From Candidatus Shapirobacteria bacterium (lineage in GTDB: Bacteria > Patescibacteriota > Microgenomatia > UBA12405), in NCBI GenBank assembly GCA_041659325.1, contig JBAZYN010000002.1:64513-128512 (forward strand): DNA of 64,000 nt, in the 5' to 3' direction. Shown piece by piece: positions 383 to 19,842 of this stretch. Made by a program: the position numbers and the translations under genes. Under the pieces are notes generated by a model. The model saw only the letters and a program-made list of their open reading frames with translations. It had not been told where the DNA came from and did no database searches. Numbering within the stretch: the first letter of the stretch is position 1; every line of letters starts with the position of its first letter.

Positions 383-459
383 GCGCCCGTAGCTTAATTG
401 GATAGAGCATTGGTTTGCGGAACCAACGGTTGGAGGTTCGAGCCCTCTCGGGCGCACCA
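383..459 (+). tRNA. tRNA-Arg (anticodon read as GCG)
   Basis: Cloverleaf. Acceptor GCGCCCG/CGGGCGC, anticodon stem TTGGT/ACCAA with loop TTGCGGA, T-arm GGAGG-TTCGAGC-CCTCT, discriminator A, encoded CCA. Confidence 0.7.
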
Positions 460-461
460 GA

Positions 462-546
462 GGAGGGTGGGCAGGACGGTAATGCGCTGGTTTCGAAAAC
501 CAGTTCCGGCAACGGATAACAGGTTCGACCCCTGTACCCTCCGCCA
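462..546 (+). tRNA. tRNA-Ser (anticodon CGA), type II with long variable arm
   Basis: Acceptor GGAGGGT/ACCCTCC, anticodon stem CTGGT/ACCAG with loop TTCGAAA, 15-nt variable hairpin TTCCGGCAACGGATA, T-arm ACAGG-TTCGACC-CCTGT, encoded CCA. Confidence 0.8.
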
Positions 547-700
547 CGTAAAATTTGCTTTGCAAATTAACGTGGCTTGAAACGTCAATTTTGTGAAACA
601 AAATTATACGTTTTGCCTATAATTCAAACGTTGCTTGAAACGTGAACGTAATATTCTACGAAGTAGAATAAACGTTCTTACGTTTCGCCAATTTCGCGAA
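539..700 (+). repeat. Repeat R copy A. Conserved sequence downstream of tRNA-Ser, starting in the tRNA 3' end (CTCCGCCACGTAAAATTTGCTTTGCAAATTAA) and followed by two ACGT-rich hairpins
   Basis: Near-identical 40 nt plus a homologous about 50-nt palindrome also present at 11319-11480, with compensatory changes in the stems. Confidence 0.7.
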
Positions 701-4795: not shown

Positions 4796-5902
4796 ATGTC
4801 GTCAATTGAACAATTATTTAACAGTCCGGTTGTAATTGCAGGCGGAGTGGCCGCCAGTGCAGCAGTAGCGGCACAAATTGCCAGAGCGACAACGGATCGA
4901 GTTAATGAAGGCGAGGTTTACCTTAGACGAAATAATATAACCGGAAAATTTAGTGTTGACTTGGATCCGAGAAAAGTAGAGTCGGTTGTAATAGGAATGC
5001 AGGCGGTAGAAGTGATGGACATAATGGGTGACAACGGACAAAGAGCAACGATAGCAGTTGACCGCACTATGAGAGAAGTATTGGATGATCCCATACAGTT
5101 TGCAGCGTTTAGAAAAAGATACGGAGTTCCCGATGCTGATAAAAGAGGTGGTCGGTCGATAAAAACACGAATAGAGGAACATGTTCCGGTTCGCGAAAAT
5201 GTGCCGGTGGCAGCTACCGGCATAAGATTCAGGCTTCCCTGGATAGAATCAGTGGCAGTGGTCACTTTGGGACAAAAGTTTATCAATCCCGCTGAAGATG
5301 GAATGAGGGCATTAGTTGGAGGTAAAAATGGAGATGTAGAGGTTCAACCTGATGTGTTGGTAACATACGATGTTCCGGCGGCGAGATTACCATTGGCAAT
5401 ACAAAAGTTACCAAAACCAGTGCCTAGACAAGGTGACCCACCCGATCCCAGAAATAGTGGTCAGTACGCTCTAGACGAAGTCGGGAAGGCAGTAAGTGGC
5501 TTAACTAAAAGTGCCATAACGGCCGCTTTCGGTAAAATACAGTTTGAACAATTGACATCAGCAAAAGGCGGCGGTGTCGAAACGGTGCAGAAAGAGATTG
5601 TTGCAGCATTTTATGACAATTTTAGGGATAGTGGTTTAGCCGGTATAGCCAATGTGCAGAAAGTACAACTACAGAGCATCAGAACAGGGGAATATGGTTT
5701 GACTTTGACAAGATTGGCAGGTCAAGCTGCTGAAAAGGACCAGCTTGGGCCAGAATTATTTGGTCAAAAAACATTAATGCAAGCGATGACCGGAGGCAAG
5801 GGGTCGTCAGTCATTATTACAGATCCAGGGTTAAGTGGATTTACTGCTGCCCAGATAGCCGCCCGAAATAGTGCCGGTGGTCGAGCAGGGGGGGAGGCAT
5901 AA
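4796..5902 (+). CDS. hypothetical protein
   Basis: 368-aa ORF, Ala/Gly-rich, no recognisable domain. Confidence 0.45.
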   Translation: MSSIEQLFNSPVVIAGGVAASAAVAAQIARATTDRVNEGEVYLRRNNITGKFSVDLDPRKVESVVIGMQAVEVMDIMGDNGQRATIAVDRTMREVLDDPIQFAAFRKRYGVPDADKRGGRSIKTRIEEHVPVRENVPVAATGIRFRLPWIESVAVVTLGQKFINPAEDGMRALVGGKNGDVEVQPDVLVTYDVPAARLPLAIQKLPKPVPRQGDPPDPRNSGQYALDEVGKAVSGLTKSAITAAFGKIQFEQLTSAKGGGVETVQKEIVAAFYDNFRDSGLAGIANVQKVQLQSIRTGEYGLTLTRLAGQAAEKDQLGPELFGQKTLMQAMTGGKGSSVIITDPGLSGFTAAQIAARNSAGGRAGGEA

Positions 5903-5903
5903 T

Positions 5904-6515
5904 ATGGGAAGAATAATGGATGCACTTGGAAGATTGGGTGAAGCGAAAAAGGCGCAAGTAAAGGTAGAATTTGGGGATATCGATGCTTTACCGGAAAACC
6001 AGCGACGATGGAACGGGTTGGTGCTCCGGACGAGACTAGCCGCTGTCGATGTCCAAACAAAATTTCAACAGGGAGCATATGTAGTGAATCAATTTACGGG
6101 GGTGGCAAGACATCTTGATACCGTAACGTCATCAGTCGGAGCAGGAGTAATGACTGGTGACATTTTAACCCGGCTTGGCGCTGGAGGTATTGGTAGTACT
6201 TTGGGAGGAGGAGCGGGAGCCCTTTGTGCGGGGGCGTTGGTGGTGACTCTGTCAAAAGGGTCTGTCAAAGACGGTGAAGGTGTAGATAGTAGACCCGCTT
6301 TGGCGGGACGGGCAGTGTTGGGGGTGACATTAAGCGGTATAGCGGCAACCCAGGTTCCGATAGTTAGAGAGGCCGTAGTGGTCCCCGGCGATACTTTTCA
6401 AACGCTTGGTAATGCTGCCATCGTTGGCGTGGCGGTATCGACAGCCGCCCTTGTCTCGGAACTTGGACACATGATGACTGATGACTATTTTGATAAGCAA
6501 AAAGCAGAAAAATAA
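5904..6515 (+). CDS. hypothetical membrane protein with glycine-zipper segments
   Basis: ATG at 5904 (MGRIMD), GxxxG-rich hydrophobic stretches (GAGGIGSTLGGGAGALCAGALVV). Confidence 0.4.
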   Translation: MGRIMDALGRLGEAKKAQVKVEFGDIDALPENQRRWNGLVLRTRLAAVDVQTKFQQGAYVVNQFTGVARHLDTVTSSVGAGVMTGDILTRLGAGGIGSTLGGGAGALCAGALVVTLSKGSVKDGEGVDSRPALAGRAVLGVTLSGIAATQVPIVREAVVVPGDTFQTLGNAAIVGVAVSTAALVSELGHMMTDDYFDKQKAEK

Positions 6516-6552
6516 TAAATTATTATTTATTAACATTTAACAAAATATAATT

Positions 6553-6822
6553 ATGACTAATGTACCATCACGAAGAGAGAGGGAGGGGCTTACAAGTTTA
6601 CCTATAGTAGGGGGAATTGTTGGTGCACTCGTACGTATCGCGGACATGGTCACCACAAGAGGGATGGAGGGAGATATCAGTTATTCAACCGGGACTAGCT
6701 CGGGAATAGTACGGGCAGAGGGTGGAAGTGTAGATGTAAGTGGAATTACCGTGCGAGACGGTAGCGTTACGGGGCATGTTGTGGAAGAGCATGCACATGT
6801 GGAGATACATATAAGAAAATAA
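6553..6822 (+). CDS. hypothetical small protein
   Basis: 89-aa ORF within the island operon. Confidence 0.3.
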   Translation: MTNVPSRREREGLTSLPIVGGIVGALVRIADMVTTRGMEGDISYSTGTSSGIVRAEGGSVDVSGITVRDGSVTGHVVEEHAHVEIHIRK

Positions 6823-6873
6823 TCTGTTTATTAGAAAATAAGAAAATGACTGCTGAATCGGGGGGAGGCAACG

Positions 6874-7911
6874 ATGGCTACTAAATCAGAGACTGCGGCT
6901 GAGAGATATAGACAAAGACAACAAGCGGAGGCGGCACAAAAAAGTATGCCAACCGAGACTGTCGGCAGGGCGATGCAGATTGCTGAAGAGAATCCCGGGG
7001 CAGACGTATATGTCCGAAGAGATGAAGATGAGATGAGGGCGCAATTAAGGGCAGGAAGAAGGGGTGGCCGCATTAATACGGGACTATTTTCGGCACAGAG
7101 AGTAGGTCACACGGTACATACAGTTGAGGAACAAATTTCGATGGAAAGAGGTGGTAGACAAACGGAGGTATATGGACGCGGGGAAAGGGTAGAAATATCC
7201 GAAGGTACGGTAGGAAGAGGGACGAGAATTGGTGGAGTCGATAATAATACAGGTCTGGAGACGGGGCAGTGGCATAGCCGAGGGAGAGAGCGGGTAGCGA
7301 CTACATCGATAGTACGCACAGAGAATTCCGGGGGTAGCGTGGATAGACAGGGAGGGTTGACAGTCCAGACAGAGAGGCAGAATTTAGTTACACTCGGCCT
7401 AAGATTATTTTTTCCAAAGGCGTGTTTGCAATCAAGAACTTCTGTATCTAGTAGCGGAATTTATGAACCGACGGAACCGATAACTATAGATGCAAGAAAA
7501 GCATTGGTCCCCGAAGCGATAGGGACCTTTATAGGAAATATGGATGTAATTGCCGGATCAATCGGGGCGGGGGTGATCGGAAATGCTATTGGTGGGGTTA
7601 TTCCAAATTGCAGCGACTCCGTACAACTTGCCGGGGCGGTGACCGCAGCAGTGATTGGAGGTGGGGCGTTGGCAGCAATGGGCCATAGCTCCAATCTGAT
7701 AGATAACGGAGGGATGCGGCTGGCTTTGGGCGTAGGCTTGTCGGCGATAGGCTCGACGGTAATTCCGGGAATTGACAATATGGTCCGCGGCGGGAATTTT
7801 CTTGAATCAGCCGGAAATGCGGCGCTGGCCGGGATAGTGATTGGAGTGACGACAATGACTGTAAGAACTATTGAGGGAAAGGTAAAGCAGTTCCTCCCTG
7901 CTGAAAAATAA
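6874..7911 (+). CDS. hypothetical protein with C-terminal glycine-zipper membrane domain
   Basis: 345 aa; charged Arg/Glu-rich N-terminal half; the C-terminal 150 aa contain repeated GxxxGxxxG motifs. Confidence 0.45.
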   Translation: MATKSETAAERYRQRQQAEAAQKSMPTETVGRAMQIAEENPGADVYVRRDEDEMRAQLRAGRRGGRINTGLFSAQRVGHTVHTVEEQISMERGGRQTEVYGRGERVEISEGTVGRGTRIGGVDNNTGLETGQWHSRGRERVATTSIVRTENSGGSVDRQGGLTVQTERQNLVTLGLRLFFPKACLQSRTSVSSSGIYEPTEPITIDARKALVPEAIGTFIGNMDVIAGSIGAGVIGNAIGGVIPNCSDSVQLAGAVTAAVIGGGALAAMGHSSNLIDNGGMRLALGVGLSAIGSTVIPGIDNMVRGGNFLESAGNAALAGIVIGVTTMTVRTIEGKVKQFLPAEK

Positions 7912-7959
7912 AAAAAAGGTGTTTTGTGTTTTCGGATATTAGGAAGCCTAAACAAAATA

Positions 7960-7999
7960 TTAGCAATCACTTGACAAGACTGCTAATTGTTTTTAAAAT
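7960..7999 (+). promoter_or_regulatory. clpB promoter. -35 TTGACA (7971-7976), 17-nt spacer, -10 TAAAAT (7994-7999). Overlapped by a CIRCE-like inverted repeat TTAGCAATC-N9-GACTGCTAA (7960-7986)
   Basis: Read directly. The inverted repeat matches the HrcA CIRCE consensus TTAGCACTC-N9-GAGTGCTAA at 16 of 18 positions, and the ATG is 6 nt after the -10. Confidence 0.5.
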
Positions 8000-8005
8000 A
8001 GGGTT

Positions 8006-10453
8006 ATGGAACAACCCAAATTTACTCAACTGGCGGCCGAGACACTGCAGCGGGCAGTGGATGAGGCCAGAGCCAGGAAGAATCCGGAAGTTGATATCCC
8101 CCACCTGAAGTGGGCACTACAAAATATTGACGGACCGGCTAAAGAAATCCTAAAAGAGAGTCAGCCGGAAGATTTGGATCGGTTACCAAAAGTTGAAGGA
8201 GGAAATGAGCCACAAATATCCCGACTGTTGCAACAAAAACTTGGTGAAGCGGTAAGAGAAAGCCAAAAACGGGGCGATAGTTTTGTCAGCCAGGAAATGC
8301 TTTTGTGGGCAGTATTTGAGGATAGTAAAATAAGACAGGAAATAGAAAATTTACGAGGAGGAAAAACAGTGGATTCAGAAAGCAAAGAACAAAGCTATAA
8401 GGCATTGGAAAAATATACGACCGACCTGACGGCGCTGGCTCGAAGTGGAAAATTGGATCCGGTAATTGGGCGAGAAGAAGAAATCAGGCGGGTGATGCAG
8501 GTGCTTTCCAGACGAACGAAAAATAACCCGGTTTTGGTGGGAGATCCGGGGGTGGGAAAGACAGCAATAGTGGAAGGACTGGCAAACCGAATCGTGAGCG
8601 GGGATGTGCCGGAGTCGCTGAAAAACAAAAAAATACTTACCTTGGAGATTTCATCCCTTTTGGCGGGAGCAAAATATCGGGGAGAATTTGAAGAGAGGCT
8701 GAAATCGGTAATTGATGAAGTGGTAAAAAGTGAGGGCAAGGTGGTCTTGTTTATCGACGAACTGCATACGATTGTGGGGGCCGGAGGGGCAGAGGGGTCG
8801 GTAGATGCAAGTAATATGCTAAAGCCGGGACTAGCGAGGGGAACCTTGAGAGTTATCGGGGCAACAACTTTGAATGAATATAGAAAATATATTGAGAAAG
8901 ACTCGGCCCTCGAGCGGAGATTTCAGCCGGTAATGGTGGGTGAGCCAAATGTGGAAAACACGATTTCGATTTTGAGAGGGTTAAAAGAAAAATATGAGAT
9001 ACACCATGGGATCAAAATTACCGATGCAGCGCTGATTGCGGCGGCAAAGCTGTCTGACCGGTATATCCGGGACAGGTTTTTGCCCGACAAGGCAATTGAT
9101 CTGGTAGATGAGTCAGCATCGGCCCTAAGAATTCAAATGGAATCTTCCCCAGTAGAAATAGACAGCCTGGAAAGAAGGGTGCGGCAACTGGAAATTGAAG
9201 CCAAAGCGCTAAAAAAAGAAAAAAGTGAAGAATGTAAACTAAGACTGGATGAAGTGGAGAAGGAAATGGCTGAAGAAAAGGAGAAATTAACAAAACTAAG
9301 ATCTCTTTGGAGCAATCAAAAAGACATTTTGAAAAAAGTACAGGATCAAAAGGAAGAGCAGGACAAACTTAAATCGGACCTGGAACAGGCGGAAAGAAAT
9401 TTGGAGCTTGATAAGGCGGCAGAAATAAAATACGGCCGGATTCCGGAGGTGCAAAAGAAGCTGGCAGAGGCAGAAAAGAAATGGCAGTCTGTCGACAAAG
9501 AGGACCGGCTGGTAAAACAGGAAGTGGATGAGGATGATATTGCCAGAGTGGTATCAAAGTGGACCGGGATACCGGCTTCGAGAATGCTTAAGTCGGAAAC
9601 CGATAAACTGAAAAATCTGGAAAAATTAATCAGGGAGCGGGTAGTTGGCCAGGATGAGGCGGTAGAAGCGGTAGCCAATGCGGTAAGAAGATCGAGGCTA
9701 CATTTGGGAGAAAGTGATAAGCCGACGGCCACCTTTTTGTTTTTGGGCCCGACAGGGGTGGGAAAAACAGAAACAGCCAAGGCGTTGGCTGAACAATTGT
9801 TCAATGACGAAAAAGCACTGGTGCGGATTGATATGTCGGAATACAGCGAAGCACACACGGTGGCAAGGCTGATTGGGTCCCCTCCCGGCTATGTGGGGTA
9901 TGAGGAAGGCGGACAATTAACGGAGGCGGTGAGAAGAAAACCGTACACAGTTGTGCTATTGGATGAGATTGAAAAGGCCAATCCCCAAATATTTAGTATC
10001 TTTTTGCAGGTTTTTGATGACGGAAGGCTGACGGACGGCAAGGGACGGACGGTTGATTTTTCCAATACAGTAATTATCATGACTTCGAATTTACCGGAAG
10101 AGATGGTGGACAAAGTTTTCAGACCTGAGTTTTTGAATAGAATTGACAGAATTATAATCTTTAACAAGCTGTCGGAAAAACAACTGGAATTGATCGTGGA
10201 AATTCAAATTGCCAACCTAATAAAAAGGTTAAAAGAGCAAAATATCGTTTTGACAGTAACAGAAAAGGGCAAAAAATATTTGGCGAAAAATGGGTATGAC
10301 CCGGTTTTTGGGGCCAGACCTTTAAAGAGGTTAATACAAAACGAGTTGGTGGACCCAATCGCCATGCTGTTACTTGACAGCGAAGAGGGAGAAAGCATGG
10401 GGGTGGTGGCCGATGAAAAGGACGGAAAGTTAAGCGTAAAATTGATGGACTAA
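8006..10453 (+). CDS. clpB: ATP-dependent chaperone ClpB
   Basis: 815 aa; two AAA+ modules (GDPGVGKT, GPTGVGKT), long coiled-coil middle domain, ClpB/Hsp104 architecture. Confidence 0.95.
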   Translation: MEQPKFTQLAAETLQRAVDEARARKNPEVDIPHLKWALQNIDGPAKEILKESQPEDLDRLPKVEGGNEPQISRLLQQKLGEAVRESQKRGDSFVSQEMLLWAVFEDSKIRQEIENLRGGKTVDSESKEQSYKALEKYTTDLTALARSGKLDPVIGREEEIRRVMQVLSRRTKNNPVLVGDPGVGKTAIVEGLANRIVSGDVPESLKNKKILTLEISSLLAGAKYRGEFEERLKSVIDEVVKSEGKVVLFIDELHTIVGAGGAEGSVDASNMLKPGLARGTLRVIGATTLNEYRKYIEKDSALERRFQPVMVGEPNVENTISILRGLKEKYEIHHGIKITDAALIAAAKLSDRYIRDRFLPDKAIDLVDESASALRIQMESSPVEIDSLERRVRQLEIEAKALKKEKSEECKLRLDEVEKEMAEEKEKLTKLRSLWSNQKDILKKVQDQKEEQDKLKSDLEQAERNLELDKAAEIKYGRIPEVQKKLAEAEKKWQSVDKEDRLVKQEVDEDDIARVVSKWTGIPASRMLKSETDKLKNLEKLIRERVVGQDEAVEAVANAVRRSRLHLGESDKPTATFLFLGPTGVGKTETAKALAEQLFNDEKALVRIDMSEYSEAHTVARLIGSPPGYVGYEEGGQLTEAVRRKPYTVVLLDEIEKANPQIFSIFLQVFDDGRLTDGKGRTVDFSNTVIIMTSNLPEEMVDKVFRPEFLNRIDRIIIFNKLSEKQLELIVEIQIANLIKRLKEQNIVLTVTEKGKKYLAKNGYDPVFGARPLKRLIQNELVDPIAMLLLDSEEGESMGVVADEKDGKLSVKLMD

Positions 10454-10462
10454 GAGGTGGGG

Positions 10463-10468
10463 TATAAT
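10463..10468 (+). promoter_or_regulatory. -10 box TATAAT immediately upstream of tRNA-Arg
   Basis: GGTATAAT lies 9 nt before the tRNA 5' end. Confidence 0.4.
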
Positions 10469-10476
10469 AGAGCACC

Positions 10477-10550
10477 GTACCCGTAGCTTAACTGGATAGA
10501 GCACTCCCCTCCGAAGGGAGTGATTGGAGGTTCAAATCCTCTCGGGTACA
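10477..10550 (+). tRNA. tRNA-Arg (anticodon CCG)
   Basis: Acceptor GTACCCG/CGGGTAC, anticodon stem CTCCC/GGGAG with loop CTCCGAA, T-arm GGAGG-TTCAAAT-CCTCT, no encoded CCA; paralogous to the tRNA at 383. Confidence 0.8.
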
Positions 10551-10586
10551 CTCAAACAGTATAAAGTCTAAAAGTCTAAAAATATT

Positions 10587-11087
10587 ATGGAAGATCAAAT
10601 AACAATTATTAAAGATAACCTTTATTACGACGAGAGATCGGCGGGGGGCTTGGTCTACAAAATTGAAAACGGAAAGACTCTGTGGCTTTTGATAAAAACC
10701 ATAAGCGGGGCCAAAAAAAACGGGCAAAAAGCAATTCATAAGTTCCCAAAAGGCCATTTGCAGAGAGATGAGTTTTTAAAACAAGCGGCATTAAGAGAGG
10801 TGGAGGAAGAGGGACAGGTTAAGGCGAAAATTGTCTCGAAAATTGGCTCAAATAATTACATAATCTGGGACAAGCTCCGAAAGAAAAAAATTATAAAAAA
10901 GGTAACGTTTTTTTTGATGGAGTACGCGGGGCAAAGCAATCTCAAGCATTACGATACAGAAATGGTGCTGGATCGGGAGTGGCTACAGTATGATGATGCT
11001 TGTGAAAAATTGGCATATGATTCGGAAAAAGTTTTGCTGAAAAGAGCCAGGATAAAACTTGAGGAGTTACAGAAAAAAAGCAGGTGA
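10587..11087 (+). CDS. NUDIX hydrolase
   Basis: Nudix box GHLQRDEFLKQAALREVEEEGQV. Confidence 0.75.
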   Translation: MEDQITIIKDNLYYDERSAGGLVYKIENGKTLWLLIKTISGAKKNGQKAIHKFPKGHLQRDEFLKQAALREVEEEGQVKAKIVSKIGSNNYIIWDKLRKKKIIKKVTFFLMEYAGQSNLKHYDTEMVLDREWLQYDDACEKLAYDSEKVLLKRARIKLEELQKKSR

Positions 11088-11147
11088 GTTTGGGGGCTTT
11101 TCAATGGTATACTATGAAGTATTTTGACCAGTAATCAGGTATAAATC

Positions 11148-11160
11148 AGGAGAGGTCGGA
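11148..11160 (+). repeat. 13-nt direct duplicate (AGGAGAGGTCGGA) of the 5' end of tRNA-Ser(GGA), 89 nt upstream of the gene
   Basis: Exact repeat seen at 11148-11160 and 11238-11250. Confidence 0.6.
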
Positions 11161-11238
11161 CCCTCCTTCGCTCGAACGGAGCTTCGGACGGGCGAAGTAG
11201 TGGTATCCACGCCGCTGGGTCGATAAAATACAAAGTGA

Positions 11239-11326
11239 GGAGAGGTCGGATAGTGGTTCATTCCACAGACCTGGAAAGTCTGCGCTCCAAAAGGGCTCGC
11301 GGGTTCGAATCCCGCCCTCTCCGCCA
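11239..11326 (+). tRNA. tRNA-Ser (anticodon GGA), type II
   Basis: Acceptor GGAGAGG/CCTCTCC, anticodon stem CAGAC/GTCTG with loop CTGGAAA, long variable arm, T-arm GCGGG-TTCGAAT-CCCGC, encoded CCA. Confidence 0.8.
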
Positions 11327-11480
11327 CGTAAAATTTGCTTTGCAAATTAATGTGGCTGAGACGTGAACGTAATATTTTACGAAGTAAAATTAACGTTCTT
11401 ACGTCTCGCCTAATTAACTCAACGCTGCTGGAACGTAAATTTCGAAGAAATTGTACGTTACCGCCAATTTAAAATCGCAT
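11319..11480 (+). repeat. Repeat R copy B, downstream of tRNA-Ser(GGA)
   Basis: CTCCGCCACGTAAAATTTGCTTTGCAAATTAATGTGGCT followed by the palindrome GAGACGTGAACGTAATATTTTACGAAGTAAAATTAACGTTCTTACGTCTC; homologous to 539-700. Confidence 0.7.
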
Positions 11481-12016: not shown

Positions 12017-12796
12017 ATGGGAGTAGATGAAGAAGGTTCGGAAGTTTCTGACCCTCTGTTGTTGGTAAGAACAATGGAGGACAGTTGGGTCGACTGCGGA
12101 CGTAAAATCGACGACACGGGGTGGCAGAGAATAACAGAAATGGCACGATTAATTTACGGTGACGCTATGGCCGTTTCTGGAGTTGACACAGAAACTGCAG
12201 AAAGGTATGTTCGCATGGCTTATAGCGATAGAGACGATGTACCCAGCGAATGGTTTGGAAGTGAAGGAACAGATGACGAAAGGGTTGTAGAAGCCCAAGG
12301 AAAAATTATTTTAGCCTGTTTAGAAGAAGGAGGTAGGTATCCCCCCGAAGATAGACGACGTTTAGTACTTCAAAAAATGGCCCAAGATTTGTTTGAAAAT
12401 GATTTATTTTCGATTGGTGTAACCCCAAGTGGTAGTGAATATGTTGTCTCTTCCCCTATAAACCGAAGCGGGTTGACGGGTACGGGCGGAGAAACATGGG
12501 TTATTAGAAATATTGCCGGAAAAAATCATATTACGCCCAGCGCCAGATCAGGCATGATAGGAAGAGCATGTTTCAGCCCGGTGATTGTTGGTATTCCTGG
12601 GGCAGAAAAGAGACGTAATAGAAGTCTCCGAGGTCATTCTCCAGAAGATGTATCTTCGGGGGGGACAGGGCCTGGGATAATAATAAAATACACAGTGTAT
12701 GAACCAGAAAGATTACCCAGTTGTTCGATAGCGGTGGGAACACAAACCGATGAACGGTTAAGTCCTCTTCGATATTCTTTAAGATTCGACCAGTAG
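12017..12796 (+). CDS. hypothetical protein (GC-rich segment)
   Basis: 259-aa ORF in the second GC-elevated segment. Confidence 0.4.
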   Translation: MGVDEEGSEVSDPLLLVRTMEDSWVDCGRKIDDTGWQRITEMARLIYGDAMAVSGVDTETAERYVRMAYSDRDDVPSEWFGSEGTDDERVVEAQGKIILACLEEGGRYPPEDRRRLVLQKMAQDLFENDLFSIGVTPSGSEYVVSSPINRSGLTGTGGETWVIRNIAGKNHITPSARSGMIGRACFSPVIVGIPGAEKRRNRSLRGHSPEDVSSGGTGPGIIIKYTVYEPERLPSCSIAVGTQTDERLSPLRYSLRFDQ

Positions 12797-12854: not shown

Positions 12855-14150
12855 ATGAGTTCTAAAGATCGACTTTTAATTGGGCAAGGTCCCGGACATC
12901 AAGACCAGCTTATCTCTATTACTGACCGACTCAGAGCAAGCATGACTAATGAAGAAGTTGTCTTTAGCCCGGCTTCTCAGGAGGTGATCAATAGTTTTGC
13001 CCAAGCGAATCAACAGCGTTTTCCTTCTATCTTAGATACTTGTATTGAAGCCTATGAGGCGTCTCTGGGAAGCCAACCTCCCGGGCATGAAAAATCCCAT
13101 ATTGTTGAAAATTTGAACCTAGCCCTCCAGATTTTTGGTCAATACCGCACCTCCGGAAATCCACTCACTAAAGTTGAAGAGTTAGAAGTCGCTCTGGCTA
13201 TCATCGGACATGATTTAGGTAGATACGCCGAACCATCTTTACCTAAAATTAACGAGAAGGATTTGGAAATACTCGGACCAATTTTTCTTGGTAGAAAATT
13301 TCTTCGCGACTTAAATATCCCGGATGAACTCGGCAATCGCATTCTTTATGATATAGCCTCTGCCTCAAATCCAAGGACTGAGCACCGCACAGCAAATATT
13401 GTCCATAGGTGTGATCGCATCCAGCTAGGTGGAGCTGTGATGATTCCTCGTCTGGTCGGACTTGGTATTGGTGAACTCGGGCCGGAAGGCTGTGATTTTA
13501 TCGTGCATCCACCAGAAGTGGCCGGGCAATTTCGGGATAATCTGCCTCATATTTACAAAGAGAGAACCTTGGCGTTACTTACTCGGTTGGAATTTTGGAT
13601 GAGAAATGTTTATCCACCTACTCGCCCGGAGGAATCTGTTAACGATGATCGAAGGAAACTAGAGACCGCCGTTCTGTTAATGCTTGGAATGCATGGCATG
13701 GATGATGTGTACAAAGAAGTATTTGCCCCGGAACTTGGCCTTGTTTCCGATCCTAAGCCATTTAAAAGACCTATTGATCCTGAATTATTCAAAGCGGCCA
13801 GGGAAGAACATACCGCCTTTATATCCCAGGTTAATCTTTCTTCTTATAGTGACCAAGGTTCATTAGAACTGGCTACGAGATTAATGGAAACCGAAAATGT
13901 CACTATTTTACCGGATTTCGCTGATCACTTTCGGGAGCGGTTGGAAAAAAGTTCTCCTGAAACTAACCGTAATCGTTGGTTGGTTATGCTTTACTCCCTT
14001 GAGACTCGACACCAAAAAAGGTTGGCTGATATTTCTCGTCTTCAACATAAGGAACAAGGGGGGGCTTTGGACCCTCTCGAGTCTTGGATCAGAGCAGAAC
14101 TCGTCGACCGAGAAGAAAAGTATTCTGCTATTTTCGAACCTTCAACTTAG
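12855..14150 (+). CDS. hypothetical protein, possible HD-domain hydrolase
   Basis: 431 aa; an H...HD...H...D pattern (AIIGHDLGR, HRCDRIQ) is suggestive only. Confidence 0.4.
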   Translation: MSSKDRLLIGQGPGHQDQLISITDRLRASMTNEEVVFSPASQEVINSFAQANQQRFPSILDTCIEAYEASLGSQPPGHEKSHIVENLNLALQIFGQYRTSGNPLTKVEELEVALAIIGHDLGRYAEPSLPKINEKDLEILGPIFLGRKFLRDLNIPDELGNRILYDIASASNPRTEHRTANIVHRCDRIQLGGAVMIPRLVGLGIGELGPEGCDFIVHPPEVAGQFRDNLPHIYKERTLALLTRLEFWMRNVYPPTRPEESVNDDRRKLETAVLLMLGMHGMDDVYKEVFAPELGLVSDPKPFKRPIDPELFKAAREEHTAFISQVNLSSYSDQGSLELATRLMETENVTILPDFADHFRERLEKSSPETNRNRWLVMLYSLETRHQKRLADISRLQHKEQGGALDPLESWIRAELVDREEKYSAIFEPST

Positions 14151-14201
14151 TAGTTGCCAACTATCCAAGGTTGTGAATTTAGGTGCCAAACGGCTTTGAG
14201 T

Positions 14202-14264
14202 CATAAAACAGGTTCTAACTGCGTGGTTCGATAAACTCATCATTATAATCAACAGTTCGCCGCC
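14202..14264 (+). repeat. S-repeat copy 1 (box A CATAAAACAGGTTCTAACTGCGT; degenerate or duplicated box B ...CAGTTCGCCGCC)
   Basis: Member of an 8-copy intergenic repeat family. Confidence 0.7.
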
Positions 14265-14576
14265 AAATTTCTATTTCCCCTTGTTGTTCCGTGTACCATA
14301 GGTTTCATGGTGGCGTATCAATGAATGGCACTCGAAGCTGGTAACAAACTTTCATTGGCTACATCGAGAAAGGTGACCGAAACCCTTCGGCCTAAACAGC
14401 GGCCAAAGTAGCCAAGGTTTTGGTAGTGTCAGAAGAGGAAGTATTTAAGTCGATCATATAGAGGCTCCTAACTATGGGGTATCCTCTACTCAATCGTCGT
14501 GATGTACTTCATTATATTGTTAATTATTCTGTAGTTCCGTATAATCTGATTGCTACCATATAGGGTAGCTTTTTTT

Positions 14577-17558
14577 ATGCCAAAATCATTTGACGATTTA
14601 TTAGATAAAGACCAAATTAAAGAGAGACTGGTAACTGTGGTGGATGCGGAATTGGCTGACAAGATCTCCGAGAAGTTTTGGAGACTGGATTCTTTTGCTA
14701 ACTTGATTTCAATTCCCTTTTTTTTAAACTTTTTGGTTGATTTTCTAAAGGAAACGAGGCTAAAGGGCACATTTAGTAAATATGACTTTTACGGATATCT
14801 ACTTAGAAAAGTGTCTGGTGGCGGTGAATTTTTAGATAAATTAACACAGCTCGCTTTGGTCGTGGAACTGCACCAGGTTAATGAGTTTGACCCGACTGGA
14901 TTTAGTGGAATACTAAACGGCCTTGGAATCAATTCGGAAGATTTAGAGCGGACTGGTTTAATAGAAAAAGACAAAAGGGATGAAAAAGATGTGATCGGTT
15001 TTTGCCACCATACAATTTCCGAATTTTTAGTAGCTAACTTTTTGTTCGGACAGGACGATTTTATCGATAAGTTGGAAAAATTTGCTTTGGTTAAAGATGA
15101 TAAAAATGTATTGGCGATTGCCTTTTCTTGGTATGGGGTAATTAGGTTCTTATTAGACAGCGACAAAAGCATTGAGGTCCGAAATTGGCTGTTAAAACTG
15201 GTGGAGGGCAATAAAGAGTTGGTTGATGATGGTTTTTGTAATGCGATTACTTCTGTTGAATCTAAAGATTTATCCCAAAAAGAGAAAAAATATATTTTTG
15301 ACCTGGTTTATGATACTTATCAGGGTAAAAAGGTATGGTTGCCAATTTGGACCAGAGTCGGGTTGCCTAATTTTTGCGGAAAAGACAGCTATGAGAAGCT
15401 CAAGGTTGATGTTCAAAATGGTAGTGGAACAGAAAGTGATGTCTTGGTGAGAAAAGGAACGGCAGTAGATATAGTTGCCAGATTAATGGAAAGCAATTCC
15501 CCTCTCATCGCCGGTAGTGAAAAAGAATGGTGGAAAGAAAAGTTGGTTGACCTCGCCAACGATGGTAATGACAATGGGGTGGTCCAGAGACACGCTTTGA
15601 CAGCGTTGGCAACTTATCATGACGTGGGTCTCATACCAAGACTGGGGAGATGTCTTAGCCACAAGGATAACCTGGTGAGGGAGGCGTTTATTCAATTTTG
15701 CTCGGAGACTAATCCTAACGATGAGACAACAATCAATCTGTTAGTGAAGGGAATTGTAGAGAAAGGAACGGATATTTACTCGCGACACGGATTTTACCAA
15801 ATTACATCAAAAGAAGGGGTAAAAGTATTTTTAAAACACCTGGTTAATAGTTCTCATTTCCTGAAAAAGTTCCTAGATAAGGAAAGTATTTTTAATAGTA
15901 AAGACAAAAACTCAGATGAGGTTATTGTTAAAAGAATCGAAGAGTTTACAGATACCGAGATTATTGGGCAACTTAAGCAAATTATTAAAAACTCCTTTGA
16001 ACAGGGTGAAATATATGATCAGGGACGGTCATATTTTCTCAAGAGACTAGCTTTAGTTACAGGAATAAATTACCCAGAGTATATTTTTGAACTGATTGAA
16101 AGGATTAGGGAAAGTGACGGGGATAAATGGGGATTAGCATACGATTATAGTGATCTTTTTTCTTGGCTGATAACCACAGAAAATGTAACGGAATTTTATA
16201 AACGGCTTAGTGGTATCAATGAACGTTGTAAAAGGCTCGCAGAAAAGGTGATATATGGCACTAGGTACGGAGACGAGGCTGTCTATAAGACAGCTGTCAA
16301 AAATAGACTGGTAACTAAGATAGAGGACCTTGAGGATCATGTACAGAACCGTGACAGAGATGGAGAAATTCTTAAAGAATTTCGACAGTTTTTGGGGACC
16401 GATAGTGACAAAAAATATTTTCCGTCAGTATTTGAGTATTTTGTCCAAAACCAGAAACTGATCACATCGAAATGGACGAAGCAAGAAAAGGAACGATTAA
16501 AAAAATTGGTAATAAATGAAGGGCTTGAGAAGATTGATCCTAAAAATATTGTAGTAAAAATTCAAAAGAGTGAAGGCGGTAGGGCTAATCAGTACAATAT
16601 TTCAAGAGTGGCGTCATATTTTGGAGACGTGGTAAGGACAGCAATAGTATTAGGATTAAACCTTAATAAATACAGACAAAAGATTATCAACTTTATCCCA
16701 TTTGCCTATTCCGACGATAGGCAGGCAATAAGTGAAGTTGTTGATCAAATAGAAGATAAAGATTTGGCGTGGGTCAACCAAGCCTATGCTGATAAAACTG
16801 GCGATATTAGGTATTTTTTACCGGACTCATATATATATTTAGTTCGAGACTATCGGGAGAAAGGTTGCGAACTTGGTTCAGCAAAAGAGATACTATTGTC
16901 TTTTGCTATAGACGGTGGATTGAGCAACCAGGACAGAAGGTATGCGGTTGAAACACTAGGGGAAATGGTGGACCAAAGTGATTTAGAGATCAAGGATGAA
17001 CTCGAAAAGGATTTAGGGTCAGAAGAAGTTAATAAAGTAGCAATGGATGTATTAATTGCAGTATTTAAAGATGATAGAGCGATAAAAGAAAGAATCGGAC
17101 AGATTAAGGCATGGTCAACAGAAGCAGAAAAATACGCAGTACCAGAATCGGGGGTTTGTCATTCAGTGTCTTCTGTTGAAGAAGAAATGGATGGAATGTC
17201 TTTAGCACAACCACTAATGAAAATGGGTGACGATCGGTACAAAAATGAATTTATCGGTCTTTTAAATTATTCAGTTGAAATATTAAAAGATGATGAGAAA
17301 AAGGAAGTTTTGTGGACCTATGTGAATTACTTATGGAGAACCGTTATTGGATATTTTAACGGATTAGAGAACAAAAACTTTGAGATTATCGGGGAATTGG
17401 AGGACTGGTTAGTCAAAAACAGAGACGTTGATAAGGTTAACTGGTTCGAAGGGAGATTGGTCACACTAAAGCAGTCCTACATAGAAGAAAGTAGTAAAAA
17501 AACCACTAGTAAAGCATTACGAATTATCACAGAAATATATGGCCATATTCATGACTGA
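14577..17558 (+). CDS. large HEAT/ARM-repeat protein with an N-terminal NACHT-like remnant (5'-truncated STAND NTPase?)
   Basis: FCHHTISEFLVANFL resembles the NACHT motif F-x-H-x-S-x-QEFLAA; an upstream PFFLNFL motif resembles the NACHT PLLL motif; there is no Walker A. The frame is closed by TGA at 14547. The ORF-track start is TTG at 14550, with ATG at 14577. Confidence 0.5.
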   Translation: MPKSFDDLLDKDQIKERLVTVVDAELADKISEKFWRLDSFANLISIPFFLNFLVDFLKETRLKGTFSKYDFYGYLLRKVSGGGEFLDKLTQLALVVELHQVNEFDPTGFSGILNGLGINSEDLERTGLIEKDKRDEKDVIGFCHHTISEFLVANFLFGQDDFIDKLEKFALVKDDKNVLAIAFSWYGVIRFLLDSDKSIEVRNWLLKLVEGNKELVDDGFCNAITSVESKDLSQKEKKYIFDLVYDTYQGKKVWLPIWTRVGLPNFCGKDSYEKLKVDVQNGSGTESDVLVRKGTAVDIVARLMESNSPLIAGSEKEWWKEKLVDLANDGNDNGVVQRHALTALATYHDVGLIPRLGRCLSHKDNLVREAFIQFCSETNPNDETTINLLVKGIVEKGTDIYSRHGFYQITSKEGVKVFLKHLVNSSHFLKKFLDKESIFNSKDKNSDEVIVKRIEEFTDTEIIGQLKQIIKNSFEQGEIYDQGRSYFLKRLALVTGINYPEYIFELIERIRESDGDKWGLAYDYSDLFSWLITTENVTEFYKRLSGINERCKRLAEKVIYGTRYGDEAVYKTAVKNRLVTKIEDLEDHVQNRDRDGEILKEFRQFLGTDSDKKYFPSVFEYFVQNQKLITSKWTKQEKERLKKLVINEGLEKIDPKNIVVKIQKSEGGRANQYNISRVASYFGDVVRTAIVLGLNLNKYRQKIINFIPFAYSDDRQAISEVVDQIEDKDLAWVNQAYADKTGDIRYFLPDSYIYLVRDYREKGCELGSAKEILLSFAIDGGLSNQDRRYAVETLGEMVDQSDLEIKDELEKDLGSEEVNKVAMDVLIAVFKDDRAIKERIGQIKAWSTEAEKYAVPESGVCHSVSSVEEEMDGMSLAQPLMKMGDDRYKNEFIGLLNYSVEILKDDEKKEVLWTYVNYLWRTVIGYFNGLENKNFEIIGELEDWLVKNRDVDKVNWFEGRLVTLKQSYIEESSKKTTSKALRIITEIYGHIHD

Positions 17559-18270
17559 CAAAGATGGCCACAATGCTGAATTGAGGTCTGACCGAGAGTA
17601 TCAACCTTATCCTTCTACCGCCAATGAGAAGAGTATAACTGAAGAGCATGTTTTGCGAGATGACCGCCCGATTCCAACACGACCTGTATGTAGAGTGGAG
17701 AGTGTCGACGAAATTTACGGCAAGGTTGTCGCGTTCAGTACCGGACAAGGCCAGGAAAATCCATTGACTGAAAGCGATAATCAGAGTGCAGAAACTGAGA
17801 ACGATACCATCAAAGGGGAGGAAGATCGTTGTATGGAGTTTAAATCTTCCCTAAGGTGGGATTACCACCAAAGTAAAGTGAACACAGAACTTGAGCTTGA
17901 GGTTATTATAGAGATGGCCGCTTTTCTAAATACTAAAGGAGGACAGGTTATAATTGGGGTGAATGATGAAGGGTGTATTCTAGGACTTGATAACGACTTT
18001 AAAACTTTAGGAAAAAAGCAAAATAGAGATGGTTTTGGGCTTCAATTGGATAATCTTATCAGTAATTTTTTGGGTGGCGGAGTTTATCCGTACATAACGC
18101 TGGAATTCCAACAAAAGAATGAAAAAGATATTTGTATAATAAGAGCCAAAAGATGTAACCATGAAGTTTATGTAGGAAAAGATAGGGATTTTTATATTAG
18201 ACGGTTTAAATCCAAGGTGAAATTAAATAGCGAAGAAGCACATCGATATATTAATGAAAATTGGAGGTAA
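17539..18270 (+). CDS. AlbA_2 (Schlafen-like) domain protein
   Basis: EFK...W and GG.VIIGVNDEG.ILG motifs characteristic of Pfam AlbA_2; overlaps the upstream gene by 20 nt. Confidence 0.55.
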   Translation: MAIFMTDKDGHNAELRSDREYQPYPSTANEKSITEEHVLRDDRPIPTRPVCRVESVDEIYGKVVAFSTGQGQENPLTESDNQSAETENDTIKGEEDRCMEFKSSLRWDYHQSKVNTELELEVIIEMAAFLNTKGGQVIIGVNDEGCILGLDNDFKTLGKKQNRDGFGLQLDNLISNFLGGGVYPYITLEFQQKNEKDICIIRAKRCNHEVYVGKDRDFYIRRFKSKVKLNSEEAHRYINENWR

Positions 18271-18282
18271 GTACCTATCTCC

Positions 18283-18651
18283 TTACTTCCCCCACTTTCT
18301 TGCTACTTCAAGTAGTTCCTCGCCTAACTTCTGAGCACTATCCCTGTACTCTTTTGCAATCCTTTCATCATTAACTGTCATAAGTAGGGCTTTTTTTAGA
18401 AAATTTCTGTGTTGACACCATGCATCTATAAATCTCCTTAATTTGGTTCCAACCTCGATATCGATGGCCTCGATTTGTGTAGCTCTAAACTTAATATGTT
18501 GTTCACTTGTTGCTCTTATCCTGAAACCCTTGTGCATACCCTCAATACAAAAAGAATTTACATCTTTTGCGGCTTGTATTTTTACAGCTCTTTTATGTTT
18601 TCTATTCTCAAAAAACTCATTAATCCAACCTTCACCGAATTTAGCAATCAA
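18283..18651 (-). CDS. hypothetical protein (possible additional N-terminal TM helix upstream with a non-ATG start)
   Basis: 122-aa ORF. The in-frame upstream sequence encodes a hydrophobic helix back to a TAG stop at about 18760, without an ATG. Confidence 0.35.
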   Translation of the reverse strand: MIAKFGEGWINEFFENRKHKRAVKIQAAKDVNSFCIEGMHKGFRIRATSEQHIKFRATQIEAIDIEVGTKLRRFIDAWCQHRNFLKKALLMTVNDERIAKEYRDSAQKLGEELLEVARKWGK

Positions 18652-18778
18652 GGCAATAATAACTCCTCCTATTGCACCAAGAATGGCCGTAATTTTTGGA
18701 TTAGATAACAGCTCGTTTAATATATGAATATTATAGACCTTACTTATATTGGGTTGTTGCTAGATTGTATGGTATAGA

Positions 18779-18815
18779 CATAAAATAGGTTCTAACTGTT
18801 CAACGGTTTATCGTC
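18779..18815 (+). repeat. S-repeat copy 2 (box A intact, box B degenerate)
   Basis: CATAAAATAGGTTCTAACTG...GGTTTATCG. Confidence 0.6.
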
Positions 18816-19738: not shown

Positions 19739-19805
19739 ATAGAACGATTATACTAAGTTGTTGACGATACTAGGGCAAATGAATCTAAATTGTGATCCGA
19801 AAGGT

Positions 19806-19842
19806 TCATAAAATAGGTTCTAACTGCGTAAATGGTTGCCCG
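19806..19842 (+). repeat. S-repeat copy 3
   Basis: CATAAAATAGGTTCTAACTGCGT AA ATGGTTGCCCGG. Confidence 0.7.

Follow-up and report, generated by a model that had tools for sequence, protein, structure and literature searches.

The locus described here raises the question of whether a bacterial gene that begins partway through an NLR-type domain, without the ATPase core that should precede it, is a broken receptor or an intact one. We analysed a stretch of 64,000 nt from a Candidatus Shapirobacteria genome (assembly GCA_041659325.1, contig JBAZYN010000002.1, positions 64,513 to 128,512 of the forward strand; hereafter, the window). In it, a large gene for a HEAT-repeat protein (gene A) overlaps the gene for a 243-aa AlbA_2/Schlafen-like protein (gene B). 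An earlier inspection of the DNA by itself (the sequence-only reading) took gene A for a 5'-truncated and possibly decayed defence gene. We found that gene A is neither truncated nor decaying. We lean, with some reserve, towards reading the pair as an intact two-gene conflict module, most likely antiviral, made of an NTPase-less NLR-derived sensor or scaffold and a Schlafen-type effector. We are highly confident of the anatomy and of the evolutionary statements on the pair, and less so of the defence function and its mechanism.

We confirmed the open reading frame (ORF) at 14550-17558 (+), which is closed on its 5' side by an in-frame TGA at 14547-14549. The true start of gene A is almost certainly the ATG at 14577, judging from its homologues: with it, the product is identical to a public protein (P0001, 100% identity; NCBI name 'HEAT repeat domain-containing protein', Ca. 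Shapirobacteria) and begins where all orthologues begin. Gene A thus spans 14577-17558 (+) and encodes 993 aa, instead of the 1002 aa of the whole frame. Residues 1-260 (14577..15356) are the remnant of a NACHT module, with the end of the nucleotide-binding domain (NBD), HD1, a winged helix and HD2-like helices, and residues 261-993 (15357..17555) form a HEAT-like alpha-solenoid, presumably the sensor or scaffold. The two stretches that had suggested a distal NACHT domain, PFFLNFL (aa 46-52) and FCHHTISEFLVANFL (aa 142-156), do occur and are conserved throughout the family. Inspection of the protein found no Walker A P-loop (GxxxxGK[ST]) and no Walker B (hhhhD[GA]xDE), in agreement with the sequence-only reading, and no sensor-1 arginine.

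Direct profile searches of gene A (Pfam, NCBIfam, PADLOC, PHROGs) gave no match to NACHT, AAA or NB-ARC. NCBIfam returned a single noise-level match (HilA/EilA, E 0.088, 11.2 bits against a cut-off of 589), and the N-terminal profile found only noise among PDB sequences. Since these searches gave nothing, the homology was shown by fold search and through relatives that carry the NBD. Residues 1-260 were modelled with AlphaFold from 12 family sequences, with a pLDDT of 86.5 and a pTM of 0.86. The model presents, in this order, a helical bundle, a winged helix composed of three helices plus a beta hairpin, an HH motif and further helices. In a Foldseek search of the PDB, the top 45 matches of this model were all NLR or Apaf-1 structures. 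The best one was NLRC4 (8fw2; E 1.7e-5, TMq 0.49, probability 1.0), and NLRP3, NOD2, NLRP7/9/14, NAIP5 and NLRP1 were also matched. As modelled, residues 1-260 are the HD1-WHD-HD2 part of an NLR NACHT module (WHD, winged-helix domain).

The relatives tell where the missing part would be. A scan of GTDB genomes retrieved a 1363-aa NBD-bearing relative (L025, gene at 5257-9348), to which gene A aligns by BLASTP over 930 residues (aa 43-969 against 249-1178; 30% identity, E 3e-101). Upstream of the aligned stretch, L025 reads GEPGSGKT, IVICLDGLDEI (Walker B) and LLLSCR (sensor-1), and residues 81-226 match Pfam NACHT (PF05729) with 38.1 bits (cut-off 26.7). We also searched the profile of the N-terminal 260 residues of gene A against 1.84 billion representative proteins, and the 424 matched proteins fell into two tiers. 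The first contains about 60 clusters with E below 1e-30, of 950-1230 aa, which match from their own residue 1-20. The second (E 1e-22 to 1e-11) consists mostly of proteins of 1300-1450 aa that match from residue 160-280 and carry (A/S)EPGxGK[ST] P-loops and hhhhD[GA]xDE Walker B motifs, some of them with N-terminal HTH, MerR or caspase domains. In a joint alignment, the NBD-less proteins begin where their relatives read '..pFS..Qv..YL', just past the sensor-1 strand ('ISCR').

The NBD-bearing sister clade (~1340 aa; for example, L025/P0091 and P0093, 'Patescibacteria group bacterium') is collinear with gene A from the end of the NBD through the solenoid and has the same HD1 'PRYL/PFFL' and WHD '..QEYL' motifs as the NBD-less clade. 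P-loop, Walker B and sensor 1 are present in the former and absent from the latter. Many of its members have precomputed Pfam NACHT and PF28130 matches; in our own scans L025 was above the cut-off and P0075/P0085 were just below it. The resemblance to the distal part of a NACHT domain was therefore well seen by the sequence-only reading, and it is upheld by fold and by homology to NACHT-bearing relatives, not by Pfam NACHT. The profile searches that it had proposed matched AlbA_2 in gene B and left the big protein without a NACHT match, and relatives with an intact NACHT, for which it had proposed to look, exist in the sister clade.

Regarding the start, it falls on the same residue in all 13 close homologues of gene A and in 20 of the 21 loci from GTDB genomes (the exception is L025, which carries the NBD). 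Around 41 representative clusters (50% identity, at least 900 aa) begin there as well, across at least seven named lineages of the Candidate Phyla Radiation (CPR). All 41 NBD-less clusters are without Walker motifs and present [FW]xHH[TS]..E[FY]L at position 122-162, and the members range from 28 to 77% identity. The HH of the winged helix (144-145) is invariant in the NBD-less clade and is replaced by NT or NP in the sister clade. In other genomes, only 0-54 nt separate the start from the preceding in-frame stop, which leaves no space for an N-terminal extension. In the closest orthologue (L031, 77% protein identity), a separate and intact 73-aa XRE-type HTH gene occupies the upstream space.

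Gene A is also under purifying selection, including its NACHT-remnant part. Nei-Gojobori dN/dS against L031 was 0.158 for codons 1-170 (dS 0.53) and 0.10 for the whole gene; against L010, it was 0.19 for the N-terminal part and 0.11 for the whole gene (0.10-0.12 for gene A overall). A tblastn search with nine NBD sequences found no NBD relic in the 64-kb window, its sole match being the Walker A of ClpB at ~8.5 kb. A 'missing P-loop exon' directly upstream was considered and rejected: the interval 14151-14549 holds no ORF of interest of at least 20 aa and no tblastn relic. Given the common start, the purifying dN/dS that extends to the NACHT remnant and the P-loop-bearing sister clade, the loss of the NTPase core is old, became fixed in a diverse clade and was followed by purifying selection. 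The claims that the TGA at 14547 or the adjacent segment had truncated the gene, that the gene had decayed and that its P-loop might lie elsewhere did not hold in the window. The sequence-only reading had also envisaged that the protein might naturally start here with a different fold: orthologues do start here, and the fold is nonetheless the HD1-WHD-HD2 of NLR proteins.

Monophyly of the NBD-less clade is inferred from profile scores and common motifs, and the clade is found largely in Patescibacteria/CPR genomes. Nine third-party annotation records of metagenome-assembled genomes (MAGs) bear other labels –seven 'uncultured Gammaproteobacteria', one 'uncultured Pseudomonadales' and one 'uncultured Actinomycetota'–, which are unverified; the GC content of these nine loci is 31-40%, like that of CPR loci. 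A single MAG (KR13_S3.mb.84) contains two NBD-less paralogues, L010 and L011, which are 67% and 46% identical to the window protein and have different partner modules.

The remainder of gene A consists of HEAT/ARM-like repeats, as had been anticipated. Pfam HEAT_2 (PF13646) matched aa 331-402 (E 4.7e-8, 33.6 bits against a cut-off of 27.7), and in the AlphaFold model of the full protein (pLDDT 85.2) residues ~260-993 make an almost all-helical solenoid. Its Foldseek matches were CRM1, importin-beta, SF3B1 and CAND1. The overall fold of residues ~260-993 is like that of karyopherin/CRM1-type HEAT solenoids (Foldseek E ~1e-5), and the fold alone is common to them (10-13% identity, TM about 0.23); nothing suggests a function in common with karyopherins or CRM1.

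Gene B (17539..18270, +) overlaps gene A by 20 nt; the overlap shrinks to 8 nt with the second ATG (17551), the start chosen by NCBI (P0160). Its residues 95-229 (17821..18225, +) are a SLFN_AlbA_2 domain (Pfam PF04326; E 3.9e-16, 60.1 bits against a cut-off of 25.3, profile positions 1-117 of 118), which confirms the size, the overlap and the AlbA_2 motifs described for this gene by the sequence-only reading. The domain carries the motif E95-x4-E100-x-K102 and D143. We take this motif to be equivalent to the residues of mammalian SLFN proteins, with which a weak PDB alignment agrees. E100, F101, K102, S103, S104, R106, F129, N131, G134 and G135 are invariant in 13 homologues, together with I139, G140, D143, G149, D153, D164 and R221; for E95, conservation is at least 70%. 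The spacing is the same as in the catalytic E17-x4-D22-x-K24 of CbCash, a tRNA-cleaving prokaryotic Schlafen (PMC13462974), the equivalence being drawn from motif alignment. The motif also agrees with the E14/D19/D45 site of Avs9, on which toxicity depends (PMC12680541), and more generally with the catalytic centres that have been reported for CbCash, Avs9, SAMD9 and SLFN (PMC13462974, PMC12680541). By its conserved residues, gene B looks catalytically competent and is a putative nuclease.

The nearest AlbA_2 homologues of gene B are 41-43% identical. One of them (P0161) lies between a gene for an AAA_15/AAA_21/DUF3696 ATPase and a type I restriction-modification (RM) operon, and another (P0162) has GmrSD and an AAA_14/DUF4143 ATPase in its vicinity. 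Fusions to receiver or cNMP-binding domains occur in further homologues, which is consistent with AlbA_2 as a regulated output module.

The partner of gene A is not constant. We compared the 21 loci from GTDB genomes and the contigs that encode public homologues. After a core of ~970-1000 aa, either a C-terminal extension is fused to the protein or another gene starts between -41 and +4 nt from the stop. Of the 28 members in which gene A is complete, 15 carry an additional C-terminal segment as a fusion; fused members make up 13 of the 19 complete genome loci, plus P0006-P0009. These 3' modules are unrelated to one another. The window has AlbA_2, recognised by Pfam, and L026 has a TIR domain as a separate gene (Pfam TIR_2, 44 bits against 28). 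Fused and weaker TIR matches, below threshold, occur in L021 and L029. L016, L018 and L031 share a 'FECKN' module with an invariant D...E-C-K, a probable PD-(D/E)xK nuclease (Pfam gave only Mrr_cat, E 0.097). A helical module of ~150 aa with an invariant R-x4-H, HEPN-like by motif (the Rx4H module), is fused in L014, L015, L017, L022, L023 and L027. L013 and L024 have proteins in which hydrophobic C-terminal segments, presumably membrane-bound, were seen by eye, and the modules of L010 and L005 were assigned to no family. A further module is a separate gene in L011 and fused in P0008 and P0009 (E 2e-6). For the latter, a Toprim/OLD-like identity was considered from an 'EGPTD' motif; there was no Pfam match and we do not claim it.

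The closest comparison is the one between the window and L031. Their DNA is homologous across the gene overlap and over some 31 codons at the start of the partner gene, past which the two loci diverge completely. These codons (17539..17632, +) encode a leader, MAI...EYQPYP.TA.EK, at the end of which the homology to the L031 partner stops (BLASTP E 4e-4 over 16 residues). Beyond it, the window continues into AlbA_2 and L031 into the FECKN module. As read from the two loci, the pair is a recent effector exchange behind a conserved leader, because 77%-identical orthologues agree up to codon ~31 and then go on with different partners.

Upstream of gene A, the window and L031 are homologous from 14347 (up to 17547; 78% DNA identity). 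The intact HTH gene of L031 (6272-6493; Pfam HTH_3, HTH_19 and HTH_31) has its counterpart here in a pseudogene remnant of an XRE-type regulator (14345..14449, +). It was found by tblastn with the 73-aa HTH protein of L031 (68.6% identity over 35 aa, E 8.8e-12) and reads QTFIGYIEKGDRNPSA*TAAKVAKVL..., with in-frame stops. In the DNA alignment only the 3' part of the HTH gene aligns, and a stretch of ~31 nt is missing in the window. The 5' half is lost at the junction with a window-specific segment. Since the remnant keeps the 3' half only and has a repeat and the window-specific segment directly to its left, the gene truncated by the neighbouring segment is this small regulator and not the NLR-like gene. 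The 'GC-rich foreign segment' and repeat copy noted by the sequence-only reading do exist, the segment being slightly GC-richer; what the segment truncated is the HTH gene. XRE-type HTH genes also stand 5' of the family gene in L026, L028, L029 and L014.

Between the remnant and gene A lie two candidate control sites. A promoter-like site for the gene pair, TTGTTA-17-TATAAT (14517..14545, +), scored 10/12 in a consensus scan, as a pattern match only, and most of it is preserved in L031. Directly between the -10 element and the ATG stands a perfect palindrome, GCTACC-N6-GGTAGC, with T7 after it (14552..14569, +); its arms are identical in L031 and its loop differs. This palindrome is a candidate operator for the HTH repressor that was lost, or else an attenuator. 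The 400-nt upstream spacer was also considered as an RNA gene, and Rfam finds only the four tRNAs of the window.

The gene pair lies in a block bracketed by copies of a repeat (the S-repeat, repeat family D3/D5), one at the left edge (copy 1, 14199..14267, +) and another at the right edge (copy 2, 18776..18802, +). The window contains six copies on the + strand, at 14199, 18776, 19804, 28990, 29757 and 34570. They are intergenic, 27-65 nt long, with the core ATAAAATAGGTTCTAAC...CAATGGTTCGCCGC, and they bracket gene blocks of 0.8-9 kb. Window positions 14205-14267 and 19805-19837 match L031 10398-10460 and 11101-11133, where the repeats flank a third gene (10445-11074; 210 aa, with an R..RNYVH motif). 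No conserved secondary structure was found in the S-repeat (RNAalifold consensus -1.2 kcal/mol, no covariation), and an attC-like element was rejected, as no convincing core-site pair was seen by eye. The S-repeat may be a recombination site, a terminator or a promoter. Inside the same repeat-bracketed block, a convergent 122-aa ORF (18283-18651, -) ends 13 nt past gene B and has no family match.

To the left of the block, two ORFs on the + strand, 12017-12796 (259 aa) and 12855-14150 (431 aa, with HD-like 'GHD...HRCD' motifs), lie within the segment of slightly higher GC content (0.43-0.44), which the syntenic L031 contig lacks. Neither ORF has a match in Pfam, NCBIfam, PADLOC or PHROGs, and a phage origin, for which these four databases gave no support, was dropped.

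At the level of neighbourhoods, several family members sit among defence or mobile genes. The neighbours of P0004 form an RM island (HpaII, Dcm, Vsr, ResIII, DUF3800 and N6_N4 methyltransferase genes); L010 immediately follows a type IIG RM enzyme, and its paralogue L011 is inside an RM island. In a set of 124 neighbouring ORFs from 14 loci, Recombinase, Resolvase and Zn_ribbon_recom lead the Pfam families (7, 6 and 5 members), followed by RM methylase and specificity domains, and PADLOC agrees on the RM matches. Of ~19 loci, 9 have a large serine recombinase no more than about 6 kb away, and zeta toxin and other mobile-element cargo are also found. As raw counts, these are suggestive of a defence-island association of the family.

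In the window, tRNA-Ser(GGA) precedes the pair by ~3 kb, and the region as a whole is syntenic with L031 (tRNA-Arg, NUDIX, tRNA-Ser) but has different cargo in the two genomes. A tRNA-Arg and tRNA-Ser pair occurs twice in the window (383-694 and 10477-11415), with different anticodons and about 10.1-10.8 kb apart, and ~130 nt of hairpin-rich sequence downstream of it is duplicated too (74-88% identity). The second copy (10477-11415) marks the start of the variable region with the gene pair. Elsewhere in the window, an 8-nt unit, GTCTWAAA, forms short intergenic arrays (10562-10587, 56984-57041 and 57491-57548), and three diverged copies of a 168-nt unit (53302-53772), probably within a coding region, lie in the GC-richest part (0.49-0.50).

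The reading of the pair as a defence-type module relies on an NLR-derived core, exchangeable modules of toxic type and a patchy, multi-copy distribution, in part in islands. Bacterial NLR-related and Avs systems, and Schlafen-based defence, show this kind of pattern (10.1101/2022.07.19.500537; PMC13581612; PMC12680541; PMC13462974). In the mechanism that we infer, a phage protein, or else a host factor that has been perturbed, would be sensed or held on the surface of the HEAT solenoid. The domains of the NACHT remnant would serve in self-association or conformational coupling, independently of an NTP switch. The AlbA_2 partner, with its ~95-residue N-terminal linker, would be held by gene A through the conserved leader peptide and stay inactive until the trigger. 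Once triggered, it might cleave tRNA or other RNA, which would stop translation and abort the infection.

Several points weigh against this reading. STAND receptors are thought to need their NTPase for oligomerisation and, to our knowledge, a STAND receptor without an NBD has no precedent. Gene A is unrecognised by PADLOC, NCBIfam and PHROGs models, and PADLOC-DB 2.0 gave no family for gene A or gene B at E up to 1. Modules other than the window AlbA_2 and the L026 TIR_2 were assigned from sub-threshold Pfam matches, short motifs and inspection, and the Rx4H and FECKN modules have no significant match among PDB sequences. AlbA_2 proteins are also annotated as DNA-binding regulators, and the names given to them include 'HTH transcriptional regulator' and 'ATP-binding protein'. 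L003 and L008 sit among housekeeping genes. Finally, the effector is C-terminal or downstream here and N-terminal in Avs proteins (PMC12680541).

Other explanations have to be weighed against the same evidence. That gene A is a recent, decaying pseudogene of an NLR-like gene, with its P-loop cut off by the foreign segment or the S-repeat, is suggested by the TGA that closes the frame, by the unrelated and somewhat GC-richer segment with a repeat copy upstream, and by a neighbouring HTH gene that is truly truncated. We consider it hardly tenable: every NBD-less member, at 28-77% identity and in many CPR lineages, has the same start, the intact HTH gene of L031 fills the space that an NBD would need, dN/dS is 0.16 in the N-terminal part, the window holds no NBD relic, and the promoter-like site and the palindrome before the ATG are conserved. 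A role outside conflict, with gene A as a CPR housekeeping scaffold and gene B as a nucleic-acid-binding regulator of AlbA_2 type, would suit the loci among housekeeping genes, the names given to AlbA_2 proteins and the absence of a match to defence models. It has a slim chance, as the partner varies (TIR, nuclease-like or membrane modules take its place, and two orthologues of 77% identity already differ), gene B keeps the catalytic motif of AlbA_2, and the family is patchily distributed, with several paralogues per genome and island contexts.

Two further alternatives accept a conflict setting. The pair could be an addiction module of integrative islands, similar to a toxin-antitoxin system, in which the HEAT protein would be a dedicated inhibitor or chaperone of the toxic partner, and the pair would serve to stabilise the mobile element and sense no phage. 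This is unlikely, in our opinion. A protein of ~1000 aa derived from an NLR is far larger than neutralisation requires, the C-terminal segment fused in 15 of 28 members misfits a logic of differential stability, and several loci are away from recombinases; yet the partners vary, have predicted toxicity and are in every case fused or translationally coupled, large serine recombinases are near about half of the loci, and zeta toxin and mobile-element cargo are nearby. The boundary between toxin-antitoxin systems and abortive infection is blurred anyway. Gene A could also act in trans, or as a decoy, by borrowing the NTPase switch of an NBD-bearing paralogue elsewhere in the genome, for which it would be a co-receptor, a regulator or an effector adaptor. 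The sister clade with the same solenoid, some of whose members are named Patescibacteria, would provide such a paralogue, several paralogues per genome are possible (L010 and L011 in one MAG), and HD1-WHD-HD2, which gene A retains, are the domains that pack against the NBD in NLRs. Nevertheless, no NBD-bearing gene was found in the window or beside the NBD-less genes of 20-odd loci, and the clade-specific HH, where the sister clade has NT or NP, indicates divergence rather than a common nucleotide pocket. We regard this explanation as improbable.

A sensor or scaffold of NLR descent with a Schlafen-type effector remains the best reading of the pair, and in this the sequence-only reading, which had proposed a defence role, agrees with ours; as said, it is drawn from architecture and context. 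A broader claim, that the family is a large, mostly CPR clade of NLR-derived receptors without a nucleotide switch, onto which effectors are plugged by a leader or by fusion, is attractive but doubtful for now.

The hallmark of STAND/NLR receptors, in bacteria as in humans, is an NTPase that controls oligomerisation. If the gene pair defends cells, NLR-type activation would not depend strictly on nucleotide exchange. It would also add a further defence family to the CPR, with gene A outside the models of PADLOC, NCBIfam and PHROGs. Two orthologous pairs with a common leader and different effectors are a ready-made experiment on effector recruitment.

Among known systems, bNACHT (bioRxiv 10.1101/2022.07.19.500537) and Avs proteins (PMC13581612, PMC11564622) have NACHT descent in common with gene A, as well as a long C-terminal repeat region of the sensor kind, exchangeable death-type modules (TIR, nuclease-like, membrane, Schlafen) and a suggested association with islands. 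However, the NTPase core (Walker A, Walker B and sensor 1) that defines them is absent across the gene A clade, and their effectors are N-terminal, whereas those of the gene A family are C-terminal or encoded by a coupled downstream gene. The gene A clade further differs by its HEAT-like repeats, its lack of PADLOC recognition and its occurrence mainly in Patescibacteria.

For gene B, the nearest arrangement is that of Avs9 and SAMD9/SAMD9L (PMC12680541), which likewise combine an AlbA_2/Schlafen-type nuclease, with the acidic motif conserved, and a STAND-type sensor with helical repeats. In these proteins AlbA_2 is fused N-terminally and the P-loop is functional, while here AlbA_2 is a separate downstream protein and there is no NTPase. 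The E-x4-(D/E)-x-K type of AlbA_2 is also that of Cash, Schlafen-Argonaute and the Schlafen-NACHT 'cluster 5' (PMC13462974; bioRxiv 10.64898/2026.05.29.728809). These prokaryotic Schlafens are, as would be the case here, regulated effectors set on varied sensors, with RM-associated relatives. Their sensors are the cA4-binding Csx15, Argonaute or an intact NACHT protein, whereas the one of the window would be an NBD-less HEAT protein.

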